Sequence record: MT478991.1
Length of the DNA stretch: 64,000 nucleotides
Reading direction: 5' to 3' (one strand)
From: Escherichia phage vB_EcoM_011D4
Every line of letters begins with the position of its first letter. Positions within the stretch are counted from its first letter, which is position 1. A program made the position numbers and the translations under genes. Below, piece by piece: positions 27,862-54,441 of the stretch. The notes under the pieces are model-generated. The model searched no databases and had not been told where the DNA came from. It saw only the letters and a list, made by a program, of their open reading frames with translations.

Positions 27862-28497
27862 TCAATCGAATGTAGAAAGCAACTGTTTTGTTTCTTTCAG
27901 TTGTCGTTCAAGATTTTTGCGTTTCTCTTTAAGTTGCATTTTAGCATTATTTCGCTCTCTTGTAACCTCTTTATCAATGCTCTTATTCCAGTTATCAATA
28001 TCAGAATAAGTTGGCATACCCAATTCTAGACCTAATGCGGTTGGATGCAGGGTAACAGTCCATAAACCGCTAATCTTCTTAAATAGGTCGGGGTGTAGTG
28101 TACTACCTACATCTTCCGGTGTCAACTCTTTTTCTTCTTTCAGTGGTGGGGTCTCGTCATATGGTTCCAGTGCATTTACTTTAATATCAGATACCTCATC
28201 AAAGAATCCGCGTACATCCGCAGGAAATACACAAGCAATTTCCCAACCGTGTTCACGCAGAGAAGTAATATTTTTCACACCCCCGCCATGTGTGATGATT
28301 GATGTGACATTGCCATCAAGGTCCACCGAATTTACGAGAAATGGCTTATCGTCTGTCAGATCATTATAAAACTGTGCTTCGGCTGTAGTCATCTCCAGAA
28401 ACAGATCTCGGATCGGACGACCATCAGGTGCGTTACCTTCCTTGAGAGTATAAAAGCGACTTACGATCCATTTTGGCGGTAAAGCATTAGCGATCAT
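27862..28497 (-). CDS. Hypothetical protein (211 aa), C-terminal coiled coil
   Basis: ORF downstream of gp41; a GCGCCC-CGCA-GGGCGC hairpin lies in the 41-to-ORF spacer. Confidence 0.45.
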   Translation of the reverse strand: MIANALPPKWIVSRFYTLKEGNAPDGRPIRDLFLEMTTAEAQFYNDLTDDKPFLVNSVDLDGNVTSIITHGGGVKNITSLREHGWEIACVFPADVRGFFDEVSDIKVNALEPYDETPPLKEEKELTPEDVGSTLHPDLFKKISGLWTVTLHPTALGLELGMPTYSDIDNWNKSIDKEVTRERNNAKMQLKEKRKNLERQLKETKQLLSTFD

Positions 28498-43413: not shown

Positions 43414-44883
43414 CTATTCCCCATTACCATTATACTTTCTTTGCTTAGTTATCCACACTCTAACCATCTCTACAGATTCGCCGTCAGACGGATCAAGAGT
43501 TTTTCCCTTTTTCTTCATGCGGTACTTAAATCCGTTAAATCTTGCATTCTCTTGTTCGTTAAAGTCGAACATCTTTTTAAATGATTTTCGCCCTTTACGC
43601 TCACCACATTCTAGCGGAATCATTCGGTCTGTTATTACATTGGCATTAGGTAGAAACGTTTTTAGATAATCTACCAACGCCCAATCAGGAACATATAGAT
43701 TAACATTCTCCTTGCTCTCGTTGTCTCTCAGGTTACAACGCAAACATAATTGAAATGCTGGTTCCAGATAATCAGACACATGACGCGCTTTCAAAAACTC
43801 ATTTGTTGGAAGATCGCAACTGTGCGCCAATCCTTTTAAAATGTCAATCTCCCATCGTTGAGGGTTAAAGCTGAACATCACAGCAACATTTTTATGATGA
43901 ATGTAAGAGTTAAGGCCATAAGATCCGTATGGTATCCGCTCACCAATACCATTTGTGCACGCTTCACGGTCCCTATTCACGGTATAAATGAAGTCATCAC
44001 CACATTCATTTTTAACCATATCAACTAGACGTTCAAAGGTATTGTTTGTTTCTGACTGGTGACGCGACCAGCGTTCGGAGTCCGTCATAAGGATGATATT
44101 AACTCTATCTGTATTTTTATACTCTTTGAAATATAGTCTGGATTCTAGAGCACTCGGAACAAAATCGCAATTTGCATAGTATCGTAGATACTTCCCGCTA
44201 TATGTATCAAAGAGATTTGCACATGCTATCGTAACCTTTTTAAAGTCTCCCCATGTACCGTGTTTGTTATCGTTCAAGAAAACAATTTTCGACCCATTCT
44301 TCCGGTGTCCTTCGTTATGTTTTACCATAACGTTGATTTTCTTCTCTAATAACGCCTCATAAAGCCCTCTAAGAGAAGAATCGATCATATCAGTACCATC
44401 CTTTGCACTTTCTATCTTTTCTTTGATAGCGGCCTTCTCAGAGTCTTTTAGAACTAGGTTCTGTAGACATTCCGATTCGTCGGCGATTGGTTCGCAATGC
44501 TTCGTGATAAGTTCAAGATTAGACTTAAACGGATACTCATTAAATTCAACCAGTTGAGGAACTTCATCAATGTAAAGAGCATAATCACCAAACATTTTTG
44601 AACGTTCCATATTAGATAACGCAGTATGTGTAATGAATATCACATCAGCACCGTCTTTAACTGATTGCATTATCGACGCTTGCACTGTCTTAAGGCTTCT
44701 TAGTCTTGTGCTATCGATCAAGACAGCACGACCGCCCATTCTTTTAAACTTATTGTAAGATTGTTCACTTAAAACACGAGATGGCGAAGCAATAACCGCT
44801 TTTTCTTTTGTCTCTAGGACGTGGGAAAGTATAGCATCAGTTTTCCCCGCCGCTGGCAATGCGATTAATGTTTCAATCTTCAT
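43414..44883 (-). CDS. P-loop NTPase of unknown function (489 aa)
   Basis: Walker A at residues 8-15 (ALPAAGKT) and Walker B-like ALYIDEVP near residue 105; large uncharacterised C-terminal region; ATG overlaps the upstream stop. Confidence 0.5.
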   Translation of the reverse strand: MKIETLIALPAAGKTDAILSHVLETKEKAVIASPSRVLSEQSYNKFKRMGGRAVLIDSTRLRSLKTVQASIMQSVKDGADVIFITHTALSNMERSKMFGDYALYIDEVPQLVEFNEYPFKSNLELITKHCEPIADESECLQNLVLKDSEKAAIKEKIESAKDGTDMIDSSLRGLYEALLEKKINVMVKHNEGHRKNGSKIVFLNDNKHGTWGDFKKVTIACANLFDTYSGKYLRYYANCDFVPSALESRLYFKEYKNTDRVNIILMTDSERWSRHQSETNNTFERLVDMVKNECGDDFIYTVNRDREACTNGIGERIPYGSYGLNSYIHHKNVAVMFSFNPQRWEIDILKGLAHSCDLPTNEFLKARHVSDYLEPAFQLCLRCNLRDNESKENVNLYVPDWALVDYLKTFLPNANVITDRMIPLECGERKGRKSFKKMFDFNEQENARFNGFKYRMKKKGKTLDPSDGESVEMVRVWITKQRKYNGNGE

Positions 44884-45191: not shown

Positions 45192-45350
45192 TTACTTAAT
45201 GATACTTACTTTACCAGATCCGTGACAATGAGCGCAACACCCATCACCACACAATCCTGTTCCGTTACAGTGTTTACACTTCTTCAACGGTAAAGCCATT
45301 ATAACAAATAAAGCAATAATGAACACCGAAACTAAATTCTCAATAATCAT
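45192..45350 (-). CDS. Possible membrane-anchored Cys-rich mini-protein (52 aa) with DnaJ-type zinc-finger repeats
   Basis: MIIENLVSVFIIALFVIMALPLKKCKHCNGTGLCGDGCCAHCHGSGKVSIIK: N-terminal TM helix plus two CxxCxGxG units; ATG overlaps the glutaredoxin-like gene's 3' end; below ORF-track threshold. Confidence 0.35.
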   Translation of the reverse strand: MIIENLVSVFIIALFVIMALPLKKCKHCNGTGLCGDGCCAHCHGSGKVSIIK

Positions 45351-45609
45351 AAATCGCCCTCAGTTCTTTATAGCCTCCAATGTGCTCGTTGTCAATGAAT
45401 ATCTGGGGGTATACAAATCGGAGGCTCTTTGAGTTCAGCCTCCCCGCCAGTTCTTCAATCATATCACGGTCGGGAATAATGTCAACCCCGACCTGCTTGA
45501 ATACTGGTTTAAGTGTATACGGAATACCCAGATCATCCAGTAGCTTCATTGCACCAATACAACCATAACAATGATAAGCCTCTTTCGGTATGCCGTATAT
45601 CTCGATCAT
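45340..45609 (-). CDS. Glutaredoxin-like protein (NrdH/glutaredoxin family)
   Basis: 89 aa; N-terminal CxxC (HCYGC), cis-Pro motif VYPQIF and GGY typical of glutaredoxin/thioredoxin fold; near nrdG/nrdD. Confidence 0.55.
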   Translation of the reverse strand: MIEIYGIPKEAYHCYGCIGAMKLLDDLGIPYTLKPVFKQVGVDIIPDRDMIEELAGRLNSKSLRFVYPQIFIDNEHIGGYKELRAIYDY

Positions 45610-46082
45610 TTCTCAGCCTTTAATCTTTCTAGTTCTTCTTCCAGTTCCTTGATCCGTTGGTCACGTTCAAAGTCACGCTGCAACTTAGTGGCGAATACTC
45701 GTTTAAACTGATTGTAATCATCGATTTTAAACACTTCTTCTTCGCCATAGCGACGCACAGAAACTTCGTAGTTATTGAAGAATTGTTGCATCATTGCTTC
45801 GGATGATAGTTCTGCTGATACTACTTTAAAATATTGATCTTCTGTAGGCGAAAACCAATTACAAGCATAAAGATAAACCTTTTCATTGTCTGGACACTGG
45901 TAAGCCTTACCATCGATTTCAATCACAGAAACATATTCAGGCATAGTAGATGAATCAATAGCTAAGACTTTAAACTGACGGTCCCCGATAAACTCGGAGA
46001 TCACACGATTCGCATCACTGGTTGCAAAGGCTTTACGCGCTTGTTCGCTTTTCCACTGATAGGTCATACCAACAACAAACAT
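45606..46082 (-). CDS. Hypothetical protein; member of multi-copy module family (1 module)
   Basis: N-terminal module VGMTYQWKSEQARKAF...FKVL...VSVIEIDGKAY shared with the next three genes and with 52293..54381. Confidence 0.5.
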   Translation of the reverse strand: MFVVGMTYQWKSEQARKAFATSDANRVISEFIGDRQFKVLAIDSSTMPEYVSVIEIDGKAYQCPDNEKVYLYACNWFSPTEDQYFKVVSAELSSEAMMQQFFNNYEVSVRRYGEEEVFKIDDYNQFKRVFATKLQRDFERDQRIKELEEELERLKAEK

Positions 46083-46083
46083 A

Positions 46084-46908
46084 TTACCAACCTCGCTCTT
46101 TACCGATCAAAAATTCAACCTCACGACGTTTAATGTCTTCTTGAAGGTCTTTAATCTTCTGGCGATCTTGCATGATTTCATCCATCTTGTCAAGTGCTGC
46201 AATAAAATCATCGAAACGTTCAAAGGTTTTACCTTCATTTGCTTCGCCAAATTTAACCATAGTCAGACCGTAACGACTACTAAACAGACGTTTCAACTGC
46301 CCAACGATCTTAGAATCAGTAGTGACGACTTCCAATTCTTCTACTTCTTGAAAGAATTTTCTATCAGAATCAATAAACCAGCTAGTTCCTTTATGGTCTT
46401 TATCTTCGGTTGCACTCATTAGAGTATGGTCTTTACCATCAATTTCAATTACATCAATTTGCCCACATGGACTAACCTTTTTAACAGTAAAAGGTCTATA
46501 ATTTATTGCTCGTGCAATAACATAATTAAGGTTAGATACGTTTTCAGCATAATGACAGAAGTCGGTCATAGCATTCGCATCTTTCCAAGTATAAGTTTTA
46601 CCAACTTCCCATTTCTGGGGAACTTCTTCAACTTCACGAAAGAATTTTCTGTCAGTAGGACTAAAGAAAAATGATGCCGTCCACAATTCATTTTCTGTAA
46701 CAGAGTCTACCGTATGCTCAACCCCATCGAGTTCTATTACATCAATCCAATCGCCATCTTCGACCTTGTTGATGGTAAAAGGCTTATCACCAATAGATTT
46801 TCTGATATCGTCATTAAGTGGAGAAAGGCAACCACCACCACAATTAACAAAATCTGTTTTAGCTTTTTCATCTTTCCAGGTGTAAGTTTTACCAATTTCC
46901 CATTTCAT
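46084..46908 (-). CDS. Hypothetical protein; module family (2 tandem modules)
   Basis: MKWEIGKTYTWKDEKAKTDF and QKWEVGKTYTWKDANAMTDF start two internal repeats, each followed by ...IDVIE(L/I)DG...DRKFF(R/Q)EVEE. Confidence 0.5.
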   Translation of the reverse strand: MKWEIGKTYTWKDEKAKTDFVNCGGGCLSPLNDDIRKSIGDKPFTINKVEDGDWIDVIELDGVEHTVDSVTENELWTASFFFSPTDRKFFREVEEVPQKWEVGKTYTWKDANAMTDFCHYAENVSNLNYVIARAINYRPFTVKKVSPCGQIDVIEIDGKDHTLMSATEDKDHKGTSWFIDSDRKFFQEVEELEVVTTDSKIVGQLKRLFSSRYGLTMVKFGEANEGKTFERFDDFIAALDKMDEIMQDRQKIKDLQEDIKRREVEFLIGKERGW

Positions 46909-46920
46909 AATATATTCCCC

Positions 46921-47400
46921 TTAACCGATTTTATCAAGTTCGTTTAATGCTTTCTCTGCTTCCTGTATAGCTTGCACCCTTTCCGGCATTTTGTCAAGAA
47001 AATCTTTCAACTCTTCAAAACTGGAGATATGACGCAAGGCGTTAGCACCGATAGCCGCATGTGATTTGCATTCAAAGCGGATTTTATAATTATCCATCGC
47101 CAACTTGAGAAGATCAATTAATTTAGATTCTTCTGGAATAATAATTTCTTCAAATCTGCTACGGTCATGATCCAGAAACCAACAAGATAGACCTACATCG
47201 GTTGAACTAATATAAGTTCCATCATGAAGATAAACAGACCGCACGTATCCTTTTTTCGCATCAACCGACGCAACTTTAAACGGTAATCTCAGATATTTCA
47301 AATAATCAACATCATACCATTTAAAAAATTGGTTTGCATCTTTTACATCTTTCCACGCATAGGTCTTACCAGCTTCCCATTTCATAATATCATCTCTCAT
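46921..47400 (-). CDS. Hypothetical protein; module family (1 module)
   Basis: MKWEAGKTYAWKDVKDANQFF...PFKVASVD...; C-terminal coiled coil. Confidence 0.5.
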   Translation of the reverse strand: MRDDIMKWEAGKTYAWKDVKDANQFFKWYDVDYLKYLRLPFKVASVDAKKGYVRSVYLHDGTYISSTDVGLSCWFLDHDRSRFEEIIIPEESKLIDLLKLAMDNYKIRFECKSHAAIGANALRHISSFEELKDFLDKMPERVQAIQEAEKALNELDKIG

Positions 47401-47926
47401 TTTTGATACGTGATTCTAATTGGATCATACGGTCGCGCGTTTGCTTGTATTCTCGGATAGCACCGATCCGGCTAGGCATACCATCAAGCACGCTCTTAAT
47501 ACCTTCTAGGGTAGTAATTTTGGCAATGCTATTATGTAACCCCATCTTATCGATCAACTGAATGTCGTAGGCTTCCATAAGCAGACCCAGGCGTTCTAAA
47601 GTTAGGTCTTCTTCTTTTTCTTCCGAATCTGGAATCTTAGGTTCAATAGTAACTTCGGTAAAGAAACGACGCTCACCCGACCAAAACCACACACCGGAAC
47701 AGCCAATAGGGGATTCTTTTAACGTCATAGAGTCGAAATTACTACCAATAATAGTAATTTCTCTAACATCACCATCATCGTCAAGGTCTTCTACCCTAAA
47801 CGGGCGACCAGCCAACAAGTCAACAATACATCTGTTAATAGACGACGAAAATTTAGTCAGTTCGGCTTTCGACGCTTCGCATTCAATCTTGTAAGTTTTA
47901 CCAACTTCCCATTCCATAATAATCAC
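47390..47926 (-). CDS. Hypothetical protein; module family (1 module)
   Basis: MEWEVGKTYKIECEASKAEL...RPFRVEDL...VREITIIG...ERRFFTEV. Confidence 0.5.
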   Translation of the reverse strand: MIIMEWEVGKTYKIECEASKAELTKFSSSINRCIVDLLAGRPFRVEDLDDDGDVREITIIGSNFDSMTLKESPIGCSGVWFWSGERRFFTEVTIEPKIPDSEEKEEDLTLERLGLLMEAYDIQLIDKMGLHNSIAKITTLEGIKSVLDGMPSRIGAIREYKQTRDRMIQLESRIKNER

Positions 47927-47927
47927 C

Positions 47928-48437
47928 TCAAATAATTTTCACTGGAATACTATTAACAATCTTGTATTGTACTTGATTGTCAGACCCCCGCCACGGCTTC
48001 TTCGTTGGCATATCTTTAATATAACGCCCATCGATGAACATGTCAACTGATTCTACAATTTTTCTTTGCTCATCATTCAATTGGTCAAGGGTATAACCAG
48101 ACCATAGCCAAATATCTTTATTTGGCATCCATGATTTTACTTCATCGATGATCCGCTGTACACCCTTTAAATTGCGTTTATACAGTGGATCGCCACCTAA
48201 GAATGTTAGCCCCTGAATAAAATCAGGTCTAAGCAGATCCAGAATCAATCCCATTGTATCATCGGTGAATGGTTCCCCGTTCTTAGGATTGAGTAGGCTA
48301 GCATTAAAGCAACCATCACATGCGTGTGAACATCCGGTAACGTAAAGGGAGACTCTCACTCCCTCACCGTTAACCATATCACAATCTTTAATATCGGCAT
48401 AGCGTAGTTTGCCGTATGTATCAGAACTCATATTCAA
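47928..48437 (-). CDS. nrdG: Anaerobic ribonucleotide reductase activating protein NrdG (radical SAM)
   Basis: 169 aa; radical-SAM cluster CSHACDGC (Cx3Cx2C); GGDPL; adjacent to nrdD as in T4. Confidence 0.85.
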   Translation of the reverse strand: MNMSSDTYGKLRYADIKDCDMVNGEGVRVSLYVTGCSHACDGCFNASLLNPKNGEPFTDDTMGLILDLLRPDFIQGLTFLGGDPLYKRNLKGVQRIIDEVKSWMPNKDIWLWSGYTLDQLNDEQRKIVESVDMFIDGRYIKDMPTKKPWRGSDNQVQYKIVNSIPVKII

Positions 48438-48573
48438 TTACCCCGAACTCGTTTACAATCTGCGCTTTATAGTAACCACCGCGAGATGCTAATAGATAAG
48501 CTGGGCTTAGGTATTCGTATTCACGGATTTCTACTTGTGCGTTTTCAGTTTCCCAAATCAGTAAAGTCCACAT
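48421..48573 (-). CDS. Small ORF (about 50 aa)
   Basis: ATG at 48573 with AGGAGAATCAAAT leader just downstream of the promoter at 48616. Confidence 0.3.
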   Translation of the reverse strand: MWTLLIWETENAQVEIREYEYLSPAYLLASRGGYYKAQIVNEFGVIEYEF

Positions 48574-48615
48574 ATTTGATTCTCCTGTAAAGTTGTATCT
48601 CGTCTTGATGAATAT

Positions 48616-48644
48616 AGTATAGGGGATCTCGCGATCCCCGTCAA
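48616..48644 (-). promoter_or_regulatory. Sigma70-like early promoter (TTGACG-N17-TATACT) with spacer palindrome
   Basis: - strand TTGACGgggatcgcgagatccccTATACT; spacer is the palindrome GGGGATC-TCGC-GATCCCC. Confidence 0.55.
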
Positions 48645-48648
48645 GCAT

Positions 48649-49197
48649 TTATTTTAAATTTTTTCGAATGTAGTCAGACCATTCCTTCCCTGTCAGTTCG
48701 GTCCCATTCTGGAAACTGAAATATTCATACGGCATCGAGTCAAGATAAAACAGGATCATACATCGCGCCATATAATACCAATCACGATTAAAGTAAACTA
48801 CGTTATCTCCAGTACCATCAGCACCTTTATCATAACCATCGCGGGTACGGGCGACCCATTGAATGGTATCATTTTTCTCACGGATAGTAACAGGTTCCCA
48901 ATATCCAGCACATCCAGCATGACCACACGAACAAGTAAGGAAATATTGACCTTTTGCTTTGTTGTCATCCCATTCACGATGAATTGGTTTGATTTCGTGA
49001 AACAGTGCCAAACAATCATGATTATGCAACACTGGCTTACCATCAATCAATGCATGGAATGTATACAAACGACCCGTAGACAAATAGCTATCCTCACGCT
49101 CAACCAGTTCAATAGCAATCTTTTTAGCTAGTTCTTTGTGTCGTTGTGCTTTACGCTTACGGTTTAATGATTTCATATTCACCTCACACATTATCAA
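48649..49197 (-). CDS. Hypothetical Cys/His-rich protein (182 aa)
   Basis: Contains a CSCGHAGCAGYW cluster and several His/Cys. Confidence 0.45.
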   Translation of the reverse strand: MIMCEVNMKSLNRKRKAQRHKELAKKIAIELVEREDSYLSTGRLYTFHALIDGKPVLHNHDCLALFHEIKPIHREWDDNKAKGQYFLTCSCGHAGCAGYWEPVTIREKNDTIQWVARTRDGYDKGADGTGDNVVYFNRDWYYMARCMILFYLDSMPYEYFSFQNGTELTGKEWSDYIRKNLK

Positions 49198-49736
49198 AGG
49201 TCGCGATATAGTACATTATGAAAATGAGAACTTGCATTACCAATATTGTAGATAATAAATTCTTCATCCGGCGCTTGCGCTACAAATTGAGTATGAGCAA
49301 CCGCCACAACCTTAAAAATACGATCCGTGATCTTGTGTTTAATTTCTGCTCCTACTTCCATAGGAACATATTCATTTGTTTCTGTTTCAGTCGCAAAACA
49401 GCCATCTTCTTCATAAGCACGAACAAATCGGTCGCAATCAGTACGCTTAACAAATTCAAGAGTATATAATTCTCGTGAATTGTCGGTATAGACCAATACA
49501 GAATTATTATGATAGCGAATCACATACAGGTTATTATCATCGTCAATTACGCAAAAGCTACGGATTCCTTCGCCTTGACTCCAGCAGACATTAACCACCG
49601 TTCCTCTAATAAAAAAACTTTCCTTTAAATTAAAACTAGCCAATGTGCTAGCGTGCATTTTAACAACAACACCATCGCCAATTTCCAGTTTACGAAGTTT
49701 AACTTCTTTGCTCAGTACACAAAACATCATCATCAT
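49194..49736 (-). CDS. Hypothetical protein (180 aa)
   Basis: First ORF downstream of the promoter at 49765. Confidence 0.45.
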   Translation of the reverse strand: MMMMFCVLSKEVKLRKLEIGDGVVVKMHASTLASFNLKESFFIRGTVVNVCWSQGEGIRSFCVIDDDNNLYVIRYHNNSVLVYTDNSRELYTLEFVKRTDCDRFVRAYEEDGCFATETETNEYVPMEVGAEIKHKITDRIFKVVAVAHTQFVAQAPDEEFIIYNIGNASSHFHNVLYRDL

Positions 49737-51743: not shown

Positions 51744-52238
51744 TTATTTTACCAATTCTGCTAATTCTTTTTCTTTAGCTTCTAGTTCAGCTTTAAGCTG
51801 TTTAATCTCTTGTCGCTTCTTATTAGCGGCTTCCTGCTTACTATTTCGGATAACCTGATCTAGATACAATTCCCAATCCTGAATATTTTTGATAATGTAG
51901 CCGTCAACATTAATTGGTCGGAGATTCAGTACAGCTTCCAGTTTAGTTGCAAAAACTTTAATTGCTGGGGTGAAGTATTCATATTCGTTATCTTCAAACC
52001 AATAACCTAGACTTGCATTCTCAATACGAAGATGAAGTTTAAGATCAAGGTCTTTATCATCGGTATATAGGTCTTTTACACACCCCATAGAATTAACCAC
52101 AACTTTAAAACGAATTTTATCTACACCACCAAAAACATCTTCAAGAATATCAGCAATTGAGCTATTAGCGCAAGATTGGTCGCTGAATGCGTCAAGGTTT
52201 TCTTTAGTTACAGTATACCAAACATCTTGTACCCACAT
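51744..52238 (-). CDS. Hypothetical protein (164 aa), C-terminal coiled coil
   Basis: ORF with a K/E-rich C-terminal coiled coil. Confidence 0.45.
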   Translation of the reverse strand: MWVQDVWYTVTKENLDAFSDQSCANSSIADILEDVFGGVDKIRFKVVVNSMGCVKDLYTDDKDLDLKLHLRIENASLGYWFEDNEYEYFTPAIKVFATKLEAVLNLRPINVDGYIIKNIQDWELYLDQVIRNSKQEAANKKRQEIKQLKAELEAKEKELAELVK

Positions 52239-52268
52239 AATATAATCCTCTCGTTGTTAAGTGGGAGT

Positions 52269-52296
52269 ATTATAGCATACTCCCTTCGCATGTCAA
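52269..52296 (-). promoter_or_regulatory. Sigma70-like early promoter (TTGACA-N16-TATAAT) inside GGGAGTA..TACTCCC palindrome
   Basis: - strand TTGACAtgcgaagggagtatgcTATAATactccc. Confidence 0.6.
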
Positions 52297-53471
52297 GCAC
52301 TAACTTTTTTCTTTACTGCTTTCACCTTCTGGCGAATTGCTCGAATCTCTTCGATCTCTTTTTCAGTCTCTTTAACAATTTCTTTGCGATTCTGAATATC
52401 TGTATCTAGATTATCATCAAGTTTAGGCAGCATGTCAATCAAGAACTTTTTAAAGTCTTTCAGGTTTCGGATAACAGCACCTTCACCCATTACCGCCACG
52501 CCTACACCATCCGGCAGGTCGCCAAACAGTTTAACCAGTTCAGACAGATGATCATGATCTTCTAGTGCTTCTTCCGGTTCAGATGGCAGTCCAACAAAGT
52601 AATAACGTTCATCATTGCTGATCAGGTGATACCAGCAAAGCCCAAAAGATTTAGGAGTATATTCTACACCACCAACTTCAACTGCGTCAACACTTCCGAA
52701 AGAATCTACTTTAGTTACCTTAAATCCATGTTCCAGCGTTTTAATAATTTCAATAACATGACTAGATACGGTTTCAGTATTAAACCAATGAGGCAAATTA
52801 TGTGGATTTGGCTTGTATCGTTCGCCTACTTTAAATCTCTGACCACGCTCTTGCATACGGACATATTCAACTCGCGTGATTTCCGCGAAGTATTCAAATT
52901 CGCTACCGTCAAACAAGCAATTCCATTGATCACAAAAACGATCCGCCTTGACGGTTTCACCTTTCGCGGTGATCATGGTAGCCGATCCATGAAATTCTTC
53001 TTCAACCAAAAAGCCATATTCGACAAAATCAACAAGTTTCATGGCTTCTTTATGCTCTGGGTCATGCTCTCCCCAGAATCGCTTAAATTCTTGCAAACCT
53101 TCTGGGGTAAACGAATAACATTTACCTTTTTCAAAGTAAGTCGGCATTGCATCCTCTTTCTTGTTCATCGCTTCGTATGCCTCTTTTGAGATACGTTTAA
53201 AGTATTTGCGCTCATTGTGCATAATCATAGTAGACCAATAATAAACGATATCCTCAGCGGAATAAACTACATCTCCAGCTTCAATAGTAATAACATGACC
53301 GTGGTCATCTTTTTCTAATACTTTAAAGCCCTTTTCTACGATTTCAGCAACCCGAATATGACCACGGCGCGAAGCATCGGTCAGAATAATTGAATAGCGA
53401 GAAAAGTCTAGAAACTCATCTTTACCACCTTCACGGAATGCATAGTAATGACCTTCAAAGAATTTAGCCAT
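52293..53471 (-). CDS. Hypothetical protein; module family (3 tandem modules)
   Basis: Three internal repeats each with G(H/K)(Y/C)Y.F...GFKV(L/T)...G.V...(I/V)E.G...ER(K/Y)YF; acidic/coiled-coil tail. Confidence 0.5.
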   Translation of the reverse strand: MAKFFEGHYYAFREGGKDEFLDFSRYSIILTDASRRGHIRVAEIVEKGFKVLEKDDHGHVITIEAGDVVYSAEDIVYYWSTMIMHNERKYFKRISKEAYEAMNKKEDAMPTYFEKGKCYSFTPEGLQEFKRFWGEHDPEHKEAMKLVDFVEYGFLVEEEFHGSATMITAKGETVKADRFCDQWNCLFDGSEFEYFAEITRVEYVRMQERGQRFKVGERYKPNPHNLPHWFNTETVSSHVIEIIKTLEHGFKVTKVDSFGSVDAVEVGGVEYTPKSFGLCWYHLISNDERYYFVGLPSEPEEALEDHDHLSELVKLFGDLPDGVGVAVMGEGAVIRNLKDFKKFLIDMLPKLDDNLDTDIQNRKEIVKETEKEIEEIRAIRQKVKAVKKKVSA

Positions 53472-53502
53472 AATATAATCCTCTCGTTGTTTAGATGGGA
53501 GT

Positions 53503-53531
53503 ATCTTACTACTCCCGTTTCATCATGTCAA
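53503..53531 (-). promoter_or_regulatory. Sigma70-like early promoter (TTGACA-N17-TAAGAT) inside GGGAGTA..TACTCCC palindrome
   Basis: - strand TTGACAtgatgaaacgggagtagTAAGATactccc; core identical to promoters at 10292 and 10570. Confidence 0.6.
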
Positions 53532-54112
53532 GCGTTAAATGACTTTTGGATCTCTTTCAGTTCAGCTACTTTATCTGCGCTATATTTTGCTTGATGTTCC
53601 ATGCGCTTAATCTCACCTTTGATATAGGTTTCTAGCTTAGGTTTATTCTCAATCAAAAAATCTTTCAGGTCATCGGCATTTTTAAAGTATAGCTGATTAT
53701 CAACGCTAAAATCTTCCAGCGTCAATGATACCAAAGAAGACTTCGCAAACAAGTTAATCAGATCTTCCAGCGATTCTTCTTTCTTAACTGGCTTCATTTC
53801 TTCAAACTGCTTTTTAGTGATACGCTTAAAGTATTTGCGCTCGCTGGCATCAATCATGATTGATGCGCCCTCATAATCATGAGTTTCTACCAAATACACT
53901 TTACCCATAACATTAACAGTCAGAACTTTAAAGCCCTTGTGAAGCACACCATACAGGAACTTGTTATGTTGTGGATAGCGTTTAACAAATTCCTCTGCGG
54001 ACTCAGCATTACGGAAAGTGTAATAACGACCTCGTTCAAAAACAGCATCATTTGAAGACTTAGCCGGATACAATTTATACGTTTTCTGTACCATAATATA
54101 ATCCTCTATCAT
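53528..54112 (-). CDS. Hypothetical protein; module family (1 module)
   Basis: RGRYYTFRNAESAEEF...GFKVLTVNVMGKVYLVE...ASERKYFKRI. Confidence 0.5.
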   Translation of the reverse strand: MIEDYIMVQKTYKLYPAKSSNDAVFERGRYYTFRNAESAEEFVKRYPQHNKFLYGVLHKGFKVLTVNVMGKVYLVETHDYEGASIMIDASERKYFKRITKKQFEEMKPVKKEESLEDLINLFAKSSLVSLTLEDFSVDNQLYFKNADDLKDFLIENKPKLETYIKGEIKRMEHQAKYSADKVAELKEIQKSFNA

Positions 54113-54381
54113 TTCACTAATTGAACAGCACGGAACAGAATGCGCTCACACGGAAGCAGCATAAATTCCCAACGCGGATCAAAGTCTTTAGCGGTATACG
54201 TTTTCCCATCAACCGAGATTTCACTTACATAACCAACAGGTGACACTTTAAGAACAGTAAACCCATTCTTGATGACTTCGTAGGTATCTTTCACCCCTTC
54301 GTATTCATCATCTAAGAAGTCTTTATGTGCTTGCTCAGATTTAAAAACATAGGCCACACCGGATTTAAACATCTTACGCAT
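54109..54381 (-). CDS. Hypothetical protein; module family (1 module)
   Basis: ATG at 54381 with AAGGAGAATCAACA leader; SGVAYVFKSEQAHKDF...GFTVLKV...VSEISVDGKTY. Confidence 0.45.
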   Translation of the reverse strand: MRKMFKSGVAYVFKSEQAHKDFLDDEYEGVKDTYEVIKNGFTVLKVSPVGYVSEISVDGKTYTAKDFDPRWEFMLLPCERILFRAVQLVK

Positions 54382-54412
54382 TGTTGATTCTCCTTCTTGA
54401 TTAGATGGGAGT

Positions 54413-54441
54413 ATTTTACTACTCCCATTTCTTATTGTCAA
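54413..54441 (-). promoter_or_regulatory. Sigma70-like early promoter (TTGACA-N17-TAAAAT) inside GGGAGTA..TACTCCC palindrome
   Basis: - strand TTGACAataagaaatgggagtagTAAAATactccc directly after the gp49 stop. Confidence 0.6.

Follow-up and report, generated by a model that had tools for sequence, protein, structure and literature searches.

A Krischvirus gene array built on exchangeable barrels of the T4 GoF/Frd.2 type

The four-gene array and its relatives in the window

We analysed a 64,000-nucleotide (nt) stretch of DNA (the window) from Escherichia phage vB_EcoM_011D4 (MT478991.1), an RB49-like Krischvirus and T4-type coliphage, and in it an array of four closely packed, co-oriented genes on the minus strand (positions 45606-47926, between nrdG and nrdH) that share one N-terminal module, here called the head. 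The 3.5 kb around the array are 97% identical to RB49, JSE and their relatives, and the four genes, here gA to gD, are labelled hypothetical protein in all records examined. An earlier note on this DNA, made from the letters alone, had placed four consecutive minus-strand open reading frames (ORFs) at 47390..47926, 46921..47400, 46084..46908 and 45606..46082. All four ORFs exist, but the starts given for the first two, GTG 47926 and ATG 47400, are probably wrong: Shine-Dalgarno sites and the RB49 annotation point to ATG 47917 for gA and ATG 47385 for gB, and with these revised starts both proteins open directly with M(E/K)WE.GKTY.

Each gene is preceded by a Shine-Dalgarno sequence, and each combines one or two heads with a C-terminal tail. 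The first, gA (47390..47917, minus strand, 175 amino acids [aa], RB49p051 homologue), starts at an ATG with a GAGG Shine-Dalgarno sequence and consists of a head (residues 1-92, 47642-47917), an acidic linker and a tail (47393-47641); it matches the hidden Markov model (HMM) of the module with E 3e-41 and phrog_5347 with E 2e-66. The second, gB (46921..47385, minus strand, 154 aa, RB49p050 homologue), has its head at 47131-47385 and its tail at 46924-47130. In gC (46084..46908, minus strand, 274 aa, RB49p049 homologue), two module copies lie back to back, as the earlier note had proposed: head C1 (residues 1-96, 46621-46908) and head C2 (residues 97-193, 46330-46620) are recovered as two HMM domains of 139 and 148 bits and are followed by the tail (46087-46329). 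The last gene, gD (45606..46082, minus strand, 158 aa, RB49p048 homologue), has its head at 45819-46082 and its tail at 45609-45818, and its stop codon overlaps the start of nrdH. The predicted flanks were likewise right: nrdG (47928..48431, minus strand), upstream, is identified by Pfam Fer4_12 (E 2e-43) and by the RB49 annotation, and the downstream glutaredoxin gene (45340..45609, minus strand), whose Glutaredoxin Pfam match falls just below the cut-off, is nrdH in the RB49 annotation.

The five heads of the array align over ~95 residues, with pairwise BLASTP scores of 30-87 bits, a similarity far above chance level. The two heads of gC are the closest pair (49% identity, E 3e-28), followed by A-C2 (E 1e-11), C1-D (E 3e-11) and B-C2 (E 6e-10); the heads of gA and gD, and those of gB and gD, are connected solely via C1 and C2. 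When the 630 ORFs of the window were searched with an HMM built from these five heads, four additional genes were detected, none of which had been used in building it (E 8e-10 to 4e-4). Compositional chance as the source of the shared residues is ruled out by shuffled controls and by this detection of members outside the model. The near-invariant residues of the head are a Y near its start, an F ~10 residues on, a central F.V and the last F of (D/E)R(K/R)(F/Y)F.

Iteration of the profile raised the total to 12 heads in nine genes of the window, so that the array described in the earlier note is part of the family only. Across nrdD from the first array lies a second one (region 51744-54441, minus strand), with four genes and six heads. 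Its first gene, hH (51744..52238, 164 aa, RB49p057 homologue), encodes one head and a tail and was recovered at profile iteration 2, with E 2e-4 prior to its inclusion. It is accompanied by hG (52293..53471, 392 aa, RB49p058 homologue), which has three HMM domains corresponding to three tandem heads, and one tail; by hF (53528..54094, 188 aa, RB49p059 homologue), which has one basic head (isoelectric point [pI] 9.7) and a tail; and by hE (54109..54381, 90 aa, RB49p060 homologue), which is a head without a tail and matches the five-head HMM with E 8e-10. The ninth gene is the homologue of dc2 (27862..28497, minus strand, 211 aa, RB49p021), immediately downstream of the helicase gene 41, with one GoF-like head (HMM E 4e-6) and a different C-terminal region. 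A scan of the RB49 genome, excluding the 86-100 kb late-gene stretch, gave no family genes beyond the same nine.

Relationship to T4 GoF and the fold of the head

The head is not a new domain but the N-terminal beta-barrel of the T4 GoF/Frd.2/MotB.1 family, as indicated by profile matches to GoF and Frd.2, by matches to goF families in PHROG and by a confident AlphaFold model. A profile of the 12 heads matched T4 GoF with 38.6 bits (residues 3-92), Frd.2 with 17.9 bits and, marginally, MotB.1 with 11.7 bits, and the maxima among 300 shuffles of each protein were 6.6, 8.8 and 7.2 bits, respectively. A PHROG family of unknown function, phrog_5347, covers gA, gB, gC and gD at full length, and gC and gD have secondary matches (E 2e-11 to 2e-6) to three PHROG families named goF mRNA metabolism modulator. 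In RefSeq, two second-array genes of RB49 (RB49p058 and RB49p059) already carry the label frd.2 / goF mRNA metabolism modulator, and the ECD7 labels are similar, unlike those of the four genes of the first array. A Pfam scan of the four first-array proteins gave nothing above threshold. Taken together, the four genes are almost certainly paralogues of the T4 GoF/Frd.2 family, a fold family first delineated in 2025, on the basis of three genes of T4 (Kim et al. 2025, PMC12152347).

The AlphaFold2 model of head C2, built from the 12-head alignment (predicted local distance difference test [pLDDT] 87.6, predicted template-modelling score 0.80), has five strands (9-12, 44-49, 55-60, 63-66 and 90-93), with two helices between strands 1 and 2, and the same barrel reappears in the AlphaFold2 model of full-length gB. 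It agrees with the bent antiparallel five-stranded sheet of ~90 aa that forms the N-terminal domain in the GoF/Frd.2/MotB.1 family (PMC12152347). The nearest solved folds to the head model are SH3-like barrels of the FeoA and DtxR/IdeR types. The likeness to FeoA and to the C-terminal SH3-like domain of the DtxR/IdeR/ScaR regulators is one of fold class only, with sequence identities of 7-15%, and membership of the FeoA family was rejected: Pfam gave no FeoA match, a PDB sequence search with the full-length family profile returned only noise (E 0.16 or worse), and the context has no feoB. A Foldseek search of BFVD with the head returned 73 matches with E <1e-3, which are uncharacterised phage proteins; every named match listed was a phage protein, mostly from T4-like phages of Escherichia, Proteus, Edwardsiella, Pectobacterium, Aeromonas, Klebsiella, Morganella and others, often with several matches per phage. 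A word-indexed search with the head alignment gave 10 proteins, and the exhaustive profile search of 1.84 billion representative proteins that was used instead gave just 75 clusters, of which the four longest (repeat proteins P0025, P0053, P0064 and P0076, 1039-2048 aa) look like spurious repeat matches and were ignored. Some of the clusters have two or three heads, as in Yersinia phage MHG19 and Morganella phage Rgz1.

T4 GoF (ComC-alpha) is the founding member of what has been described as an LSm-like fold family of the Tevenvirinae (Kim et al. 2025, PMC12152347), and the heads could be Sm/LSm-like RNA-binding domains acting as RNA chaperones or modulators of mRNA stability, as proposed for GoF, with tandem barrels or tail oligomers forming an Hfq-like multi-barrel surface and different heads recognising different phage or host transcripts. 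Several observations are consistent with such a role. The heads are homologous to GoF and, like Hfq and the Sm/LSm proteins, are small bent five-stranded barrels, and GoF has been linked to RNA: the phenotypes of the family are known only from T4 goF point mutants (D25Y and G84R, both in the barrel) that restore growth on rho mutants, and GoF(D25Y) stabilises the gene 41 leader RNA, lengthening the half-life of a reporter with the gene 41 5' untranslated region (PMC12152347). G84 aligns next to the invariant F of (D/E)R(K/R)FF, a position at which 5 of the 12 Krischvirus heads have K or R; the head of hF is strongly basic; and a family member, dc2, adjoins gene 41. On the other hand, no clear RNA effect was seen with GoF or MotB.1 in their wild-type form (PMC12152347). 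Sm/LSm proteins bind RNA as hexameric or heptameric rings; the published AlphaFold3 multimer models of GoF are not confident (PMC12152347). Four of the five heads of the first array are acidic (pI 4.5-5.1, net charge -3 to -9), the fifth, that of gB, being near neutral (pI 6.7, net charge 0). Further, the Sm/LSm layout, in which an N-terminal alpha-helix is followed directly by five bent strands, is not that of the head model with its two helices between strands 1 and 2, and Hfq and Sm proteins are absent from the 60 best structural matches of the head, so that "SH3-like, FeoA-type barrel" describes the modelled fold better than "LSm". Overall, we regard an RNA-binding role of the heads as rather unlikely. 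An equivalent of GoF D25 in the Krischvirus heads was considered and dropped, as the loop aligns ambiguously and hmmalign and MAFFT disagree. The place of dc2 beside gene 41 is curious given the effect of GoF(D25Y) on gene 41 mRNA, and may be coincidence.

The tails had been described in the earlier note as different coiled-coil segments, and they are indeed more diverged between paralogues than the heads. They are nevertheless related, as judged from the single PHROG family that spans the proteins and from tail profiles, and appear to be a weakly related alpha/beta unit of ~65-80 aa in which a helix and a small hairpin are followed by two more helices, the last of them long and amphipathic. 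In leave-one-out profile searches, the omitted tails of gB, gC and hG outscored all 500 shuffles; that of gD was near-significant (3 of 500 shuffles reached the real score), those of gA (11 of 500) and hF were marginal, and the score of the hH tail was not significant against 500 shuffles. The AlphaFold2 model of full-length gB (pLDDT 77.8) places a helix (residues 86-100), a low-confidence hairpin and two further helices (123-131 and 134-153) after the barrel. The best match of this model in a Foldseek search of the PDB had E 0.4, and since neither fold nor sequence gave a significant PDB match, the tail is without a recognisable solved relative. The Krischvirus tail profile had no match in the C-terminal part of T4 GoF or in dc2. 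T4 GoF is a single gene with one barrel and a C-terminal part that the tail profile does not match, whereas Krischvirus has nine family genes with as many as three barrels in one protein, a common tail and, as described below, exchanged head alleles.

Head alleles and conserved tails across Krischvirus

We compared the locus in nine Krischvirus genomes and surveyed allele classes in 58 Krischvirus records. The four array genes are kept in order in all nine genomes, and homologues of gC, of the head and the tail of gB and of the head of gD are present in all 58 records. The genes flanking the array have mean aa identities of 97-99.5% and ratios of nonsynonymous to synonymous substitution (dN/dS) of 0.04-0.16, compared with 81-88% and 0.2-0.4 for the array genes. 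This divergence is concentrated in the heads. The mean aa identity is 69% (minimum 44%) for the gB head, 73% (minimum 42%) for head C2, 73% (minimum 55%) for the gD head and 85% (minimum 48%) for the gA head, with dN/dS of 0.36, 0.36, 0.27 and 0.25, respectively, whereas the tails of gB, gC and gD have mean identities of 100%, 98.9% and 93% and dN/dS of 0, 0.03 and 0.07; overall, dN/dS is 0.25-0.36 in the heads and 0-0.14 in the tails. In a plot of identity in 60-nt sliding windows, divergent head blocks (47906-47609, 47384-47112, 46871-46632, 46571-46293 and 46112-45780) alternate with conserved tails and flanks. The ORFs are intact throughout the nine genomes, with the exception of the gA tail of ECD7. 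The gA homologue of that phage (1472-1963 of its locus) is frameshifted and shortened to 163 aa with an unrelated end, and is a natural disrupted-tail variant.

The head variants are discrete alleles that are 42-55% identical to one another in genomes whose flanking proteins are 97-100% identical. Identity of the gB head is bimodal across the 58 records, 29 having at least 80% and 29 less than 60%, while no record has a gB tail with less than 95% identity. Identity of the gD head is trimodal (36, 9 and 13 records). For the C1 allele of the window, none of 59 matching phage records has a match exceeding 72% identity. The assortment of allele types is in part independent, as in phage Brandy, which combines gB type 1 with gD type 2. 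The second array is also a patchwork: JK32 carries a replacement hH head, and two alleles each are seen for the third head of hG and for the tail of hF. Comparisons between allele classes give saturated dS (1.2-1.8) and dN/dS of ~0.3, which indicates old alleles moved by recombination and not recent bursts of substitution. The earlier view of a rapidly diversifying family is therefore upheld as far as the islands of divergence go, but what varies is a set of old alleles that have been exchanged, not sequence evolving in place with dN/dS >1. Gene conversion from paralogues was excluded as a source of the variant heads, which are nearest to alleles of the same slot (41-53% identity, compared with 26-41% for paralogue slots). 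A diversity-generating retroelement was likewise rejected: there is no long direct repeat of a head-coding segment beyond the weak similarity of the paralogues, the alleles differ by indels and saturated synonymous change, and the annotation of the RB49 regions examined includes no reverse transcriptase.

The survey of related phages for copy number, which the earlier note had suggested, revealed that the number of heads in gC differs. In most phages gC has the order C1-C2-tail, in AV108 it is C2-tail, with the junction within KWExGKTYTWKD, and in E26 it is C1-tail, with the junction within DRKFFREVEE. Both junctions lie within the shared edge motifs, and the conserved head edges thus act as recombination sites. 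The T-even gp38 adhesins, in which hypervariable segments are delimited by conserved motifs, resemble this arrangement in the replacement of discrete blocks by recombination at short conserved sequences. The modular shuffling of T4-type phages at promoter-early stem-loop (PeSL) cassettes (Arbiol et al. 2010, PMC2839356) is similar in that blocks are replaced between near-identical genomes at short conserved sequences; however, the unit exchanged in Krischvirus is a protein domain within a gene, bounded by conserved coding motifs, and not an intergenic promoter-terminator cassette.

The comparison with PeSL cassettes bears on a second alternative, in which the genes have no strong individual function and are dispensable ORFs of a plastic region, the head variation being a by-product of frequent exchange, whether illegitimate or homologous, during co-infection by different phages, for example at such cassettes nearby. 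Recombination hot spots at which non-essential early genes are shuffled do occur in T4-type genomes (PMC2839356), a stem-loop and a perfect sigma-70 promoter lie just downstream of nrdD, and unrelated neighbours vary too, among them p055 and an ORF upstream of nrdG that is 153 or 228 nt long. This reading is nonetheless quite improbable, given that the four genes keep their order in all nine genomes, that gC, the gB head and tail and the gD head have homologues in every one of the 58 records, that dN/dS is well below 1 in heads and tails alike, that the breakpoints fall at domain edges inside genes and not at intergenic cassettes, and that the barrel core residues are conserved even between alleles that are 42-55% identical.

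The gene neighbourhood suggests a further alternative, namely that the array proteins are accessory factors of the nucleotide-metabolism genes nrdD, nrdG, nrdH and nrdC, for instance subunits of the anaerobic ribonucleotide reductase that are FeoA-like or serve as scaffolds. The two arrays flank nrdD-nrdG and are adjacent to nrdH and nrdC, and T4 Frd.2 lies beside frd. T4 GoF and MotB.1, however, are not adjacent to nucleotide-metabolism genes, and an invariant enzyme partner fails to explain heads that are 50% different between phages with 99-100% identical Nrd proteins. We therefore consider this explanation extremely unlikely.

Several features of the surroundings were recorded in their own right. 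A GC-rich stem-loop of 9 bp with a run of T (49831-49810) lies just downstream of nrdD on the minus strand; the perfect promoter TTGACA-16-TATAAT (49793-49766) comes directly after it, and this arrangement resembles the PeSL cassettes of RB49 and phi1 (PMC2839356). The small minus-strand ORF that overlaps the nrdG start (48421-48648) has its 228-nt form in the window phage, AV108 and E26 and its 153-nt form in RB49, ECD7, JK32, UPWr_E1, ELT3 and Brandy, an indel polymorphism adjoining the array. Beyond nrdH, a minus-strand ORF of 52 aa (45192-45350, RB49p046 homologue), annotated just as hypothetical, encodes a protein with a hydrophobic segment at its N-terminus and two copies of the motif CxxCxGxG (CKHCNGTG and CAHCHGSG) that resemble the zinc-finger repeats of DnaJ. 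The hypothetical RB49p044 homologue (43414-44883, minus strand, 489 aa), which is 99.5% conserved across Krischvirus genomes, weakly matches DEAD/DEAH-box helicases in Pfam (E 3e-6, just above the cut-off).

A proposed role for the array and its significance

Taken as a whole, the observations are on balance probably best explained by paralogues of the GoF/Frd.2 family that recombine their heads and act as adaptors in host takeover. On this explanation the family grew by gene duplication and by duplication of heads within genes, and its present evolution proceeds by recombination at the motifs KWExGKTY(T)WKD and (D/E)R(K/R)FFxEVE, which mark the start and the end of the head. Such recombination adds or removes heads, or swaps in a very different allele, while the tail stays constant. 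The barrel would bind the ligand and determine the specificity, and its partner would differ from host to host; this partner would be a protein of the host or, with lower probability, an RNA, and would take part in RNA metabolism or defence. Self-association or docking to a conserved partner may be the role of the constant tail. A constant tail, an exchangeable head and purifying selection on both are what would be expected if the barrel binds a host-variable partner. The array proteins would then be early, non-essential modulators of host takeover; early expression and dispensability in the laboratory are features of the GoF/Frd.2/MotB.1 family (PMC12152347). The genes are probably expressed early, judging from their strand, their position among early and middle genes and near-consensus sigma-70 sites: seven of seven sigma-70-type matches of 11/12 or 12/12 are on the minus strand, and a promoter-like site (TTGACA-17-TATATT, 48046..48018, minus strand) lies within nrdG. 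The adaptor mechanism, taken on its own, is put forward as a tentative proposal, possible but short of probable.

Several points weigh against this reading. No experiment or database match assigns a function to the array genes, and the tail model is only moderately confident (pLDDT 54-79). Consensus promoter matches are only slightly enriched (44, compared with 34.9 +/- 5.7 in shuffles). The crude dN/dS values are below 1, so that an arms race is read solely from the allele pattern. Moreover, JK32 carries a divergent allele of the unrelated gene p055 (49194-49736, minus strand, phrog_14838, hypothetical), with 68% identity across the compared part, which suggests that the surroundings of the arrays are a general recombination hot spot; the head variation could thus reflect the general hot spots of T4-type plastic regions.

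A more elaborate version of the adaptor proposal, which we consider unlikely, is a battery of specificity cassettes, in which every slot is occupied by one out of a set of ancient, balanced head alleles directed against variable host targets (defence proteins or RNA-processing factors), the constant tails couple the heads to a common effector or oligomer, and motif-guided domain exchange shuffles the repertoire. If true, it would represent a way of diversifying counter-defence that has not been described for the GoF family. A search of the literature for anti-defence functions in Krischvirus or further work on GoF gave nothing beyond PMC12152347 and an unexplained deletion in the goF linker from a T4 evolution experiment.

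The domain family itself, and the RefSeq labels on part of its Krischvirus expansion, are already known. What is new is the assignment of four genes labelled hypothetical to the GoF/Frd.2 family, the expansion to nine genes and twelve barrels compared with three members in T4, the common tail, and the allelic replacement specific to heads together with the motif-guided gain and loss of heads. GoF has been puzzling since the rho/nusD suppressor work, and Krischvirus provides a richer natural experiment: nine paralogues, forms with one, two and three barrels, natural variants that consist of a head alone or have a truncated tail, and ~50% divergence between head alleles in otherwise near-identical genomes. 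This pattern suggests that the barrel is the specificity surface, and the natural allele swaps can be used directly in the search for the ligand of the family. Should the partners prove to be factors of host defence or RNA decay, the arrays would account for some of the unexplained accessory genes in T4-type therapeutic phages. Overall, the population pattern makes the question of GoF-family function more tractable.

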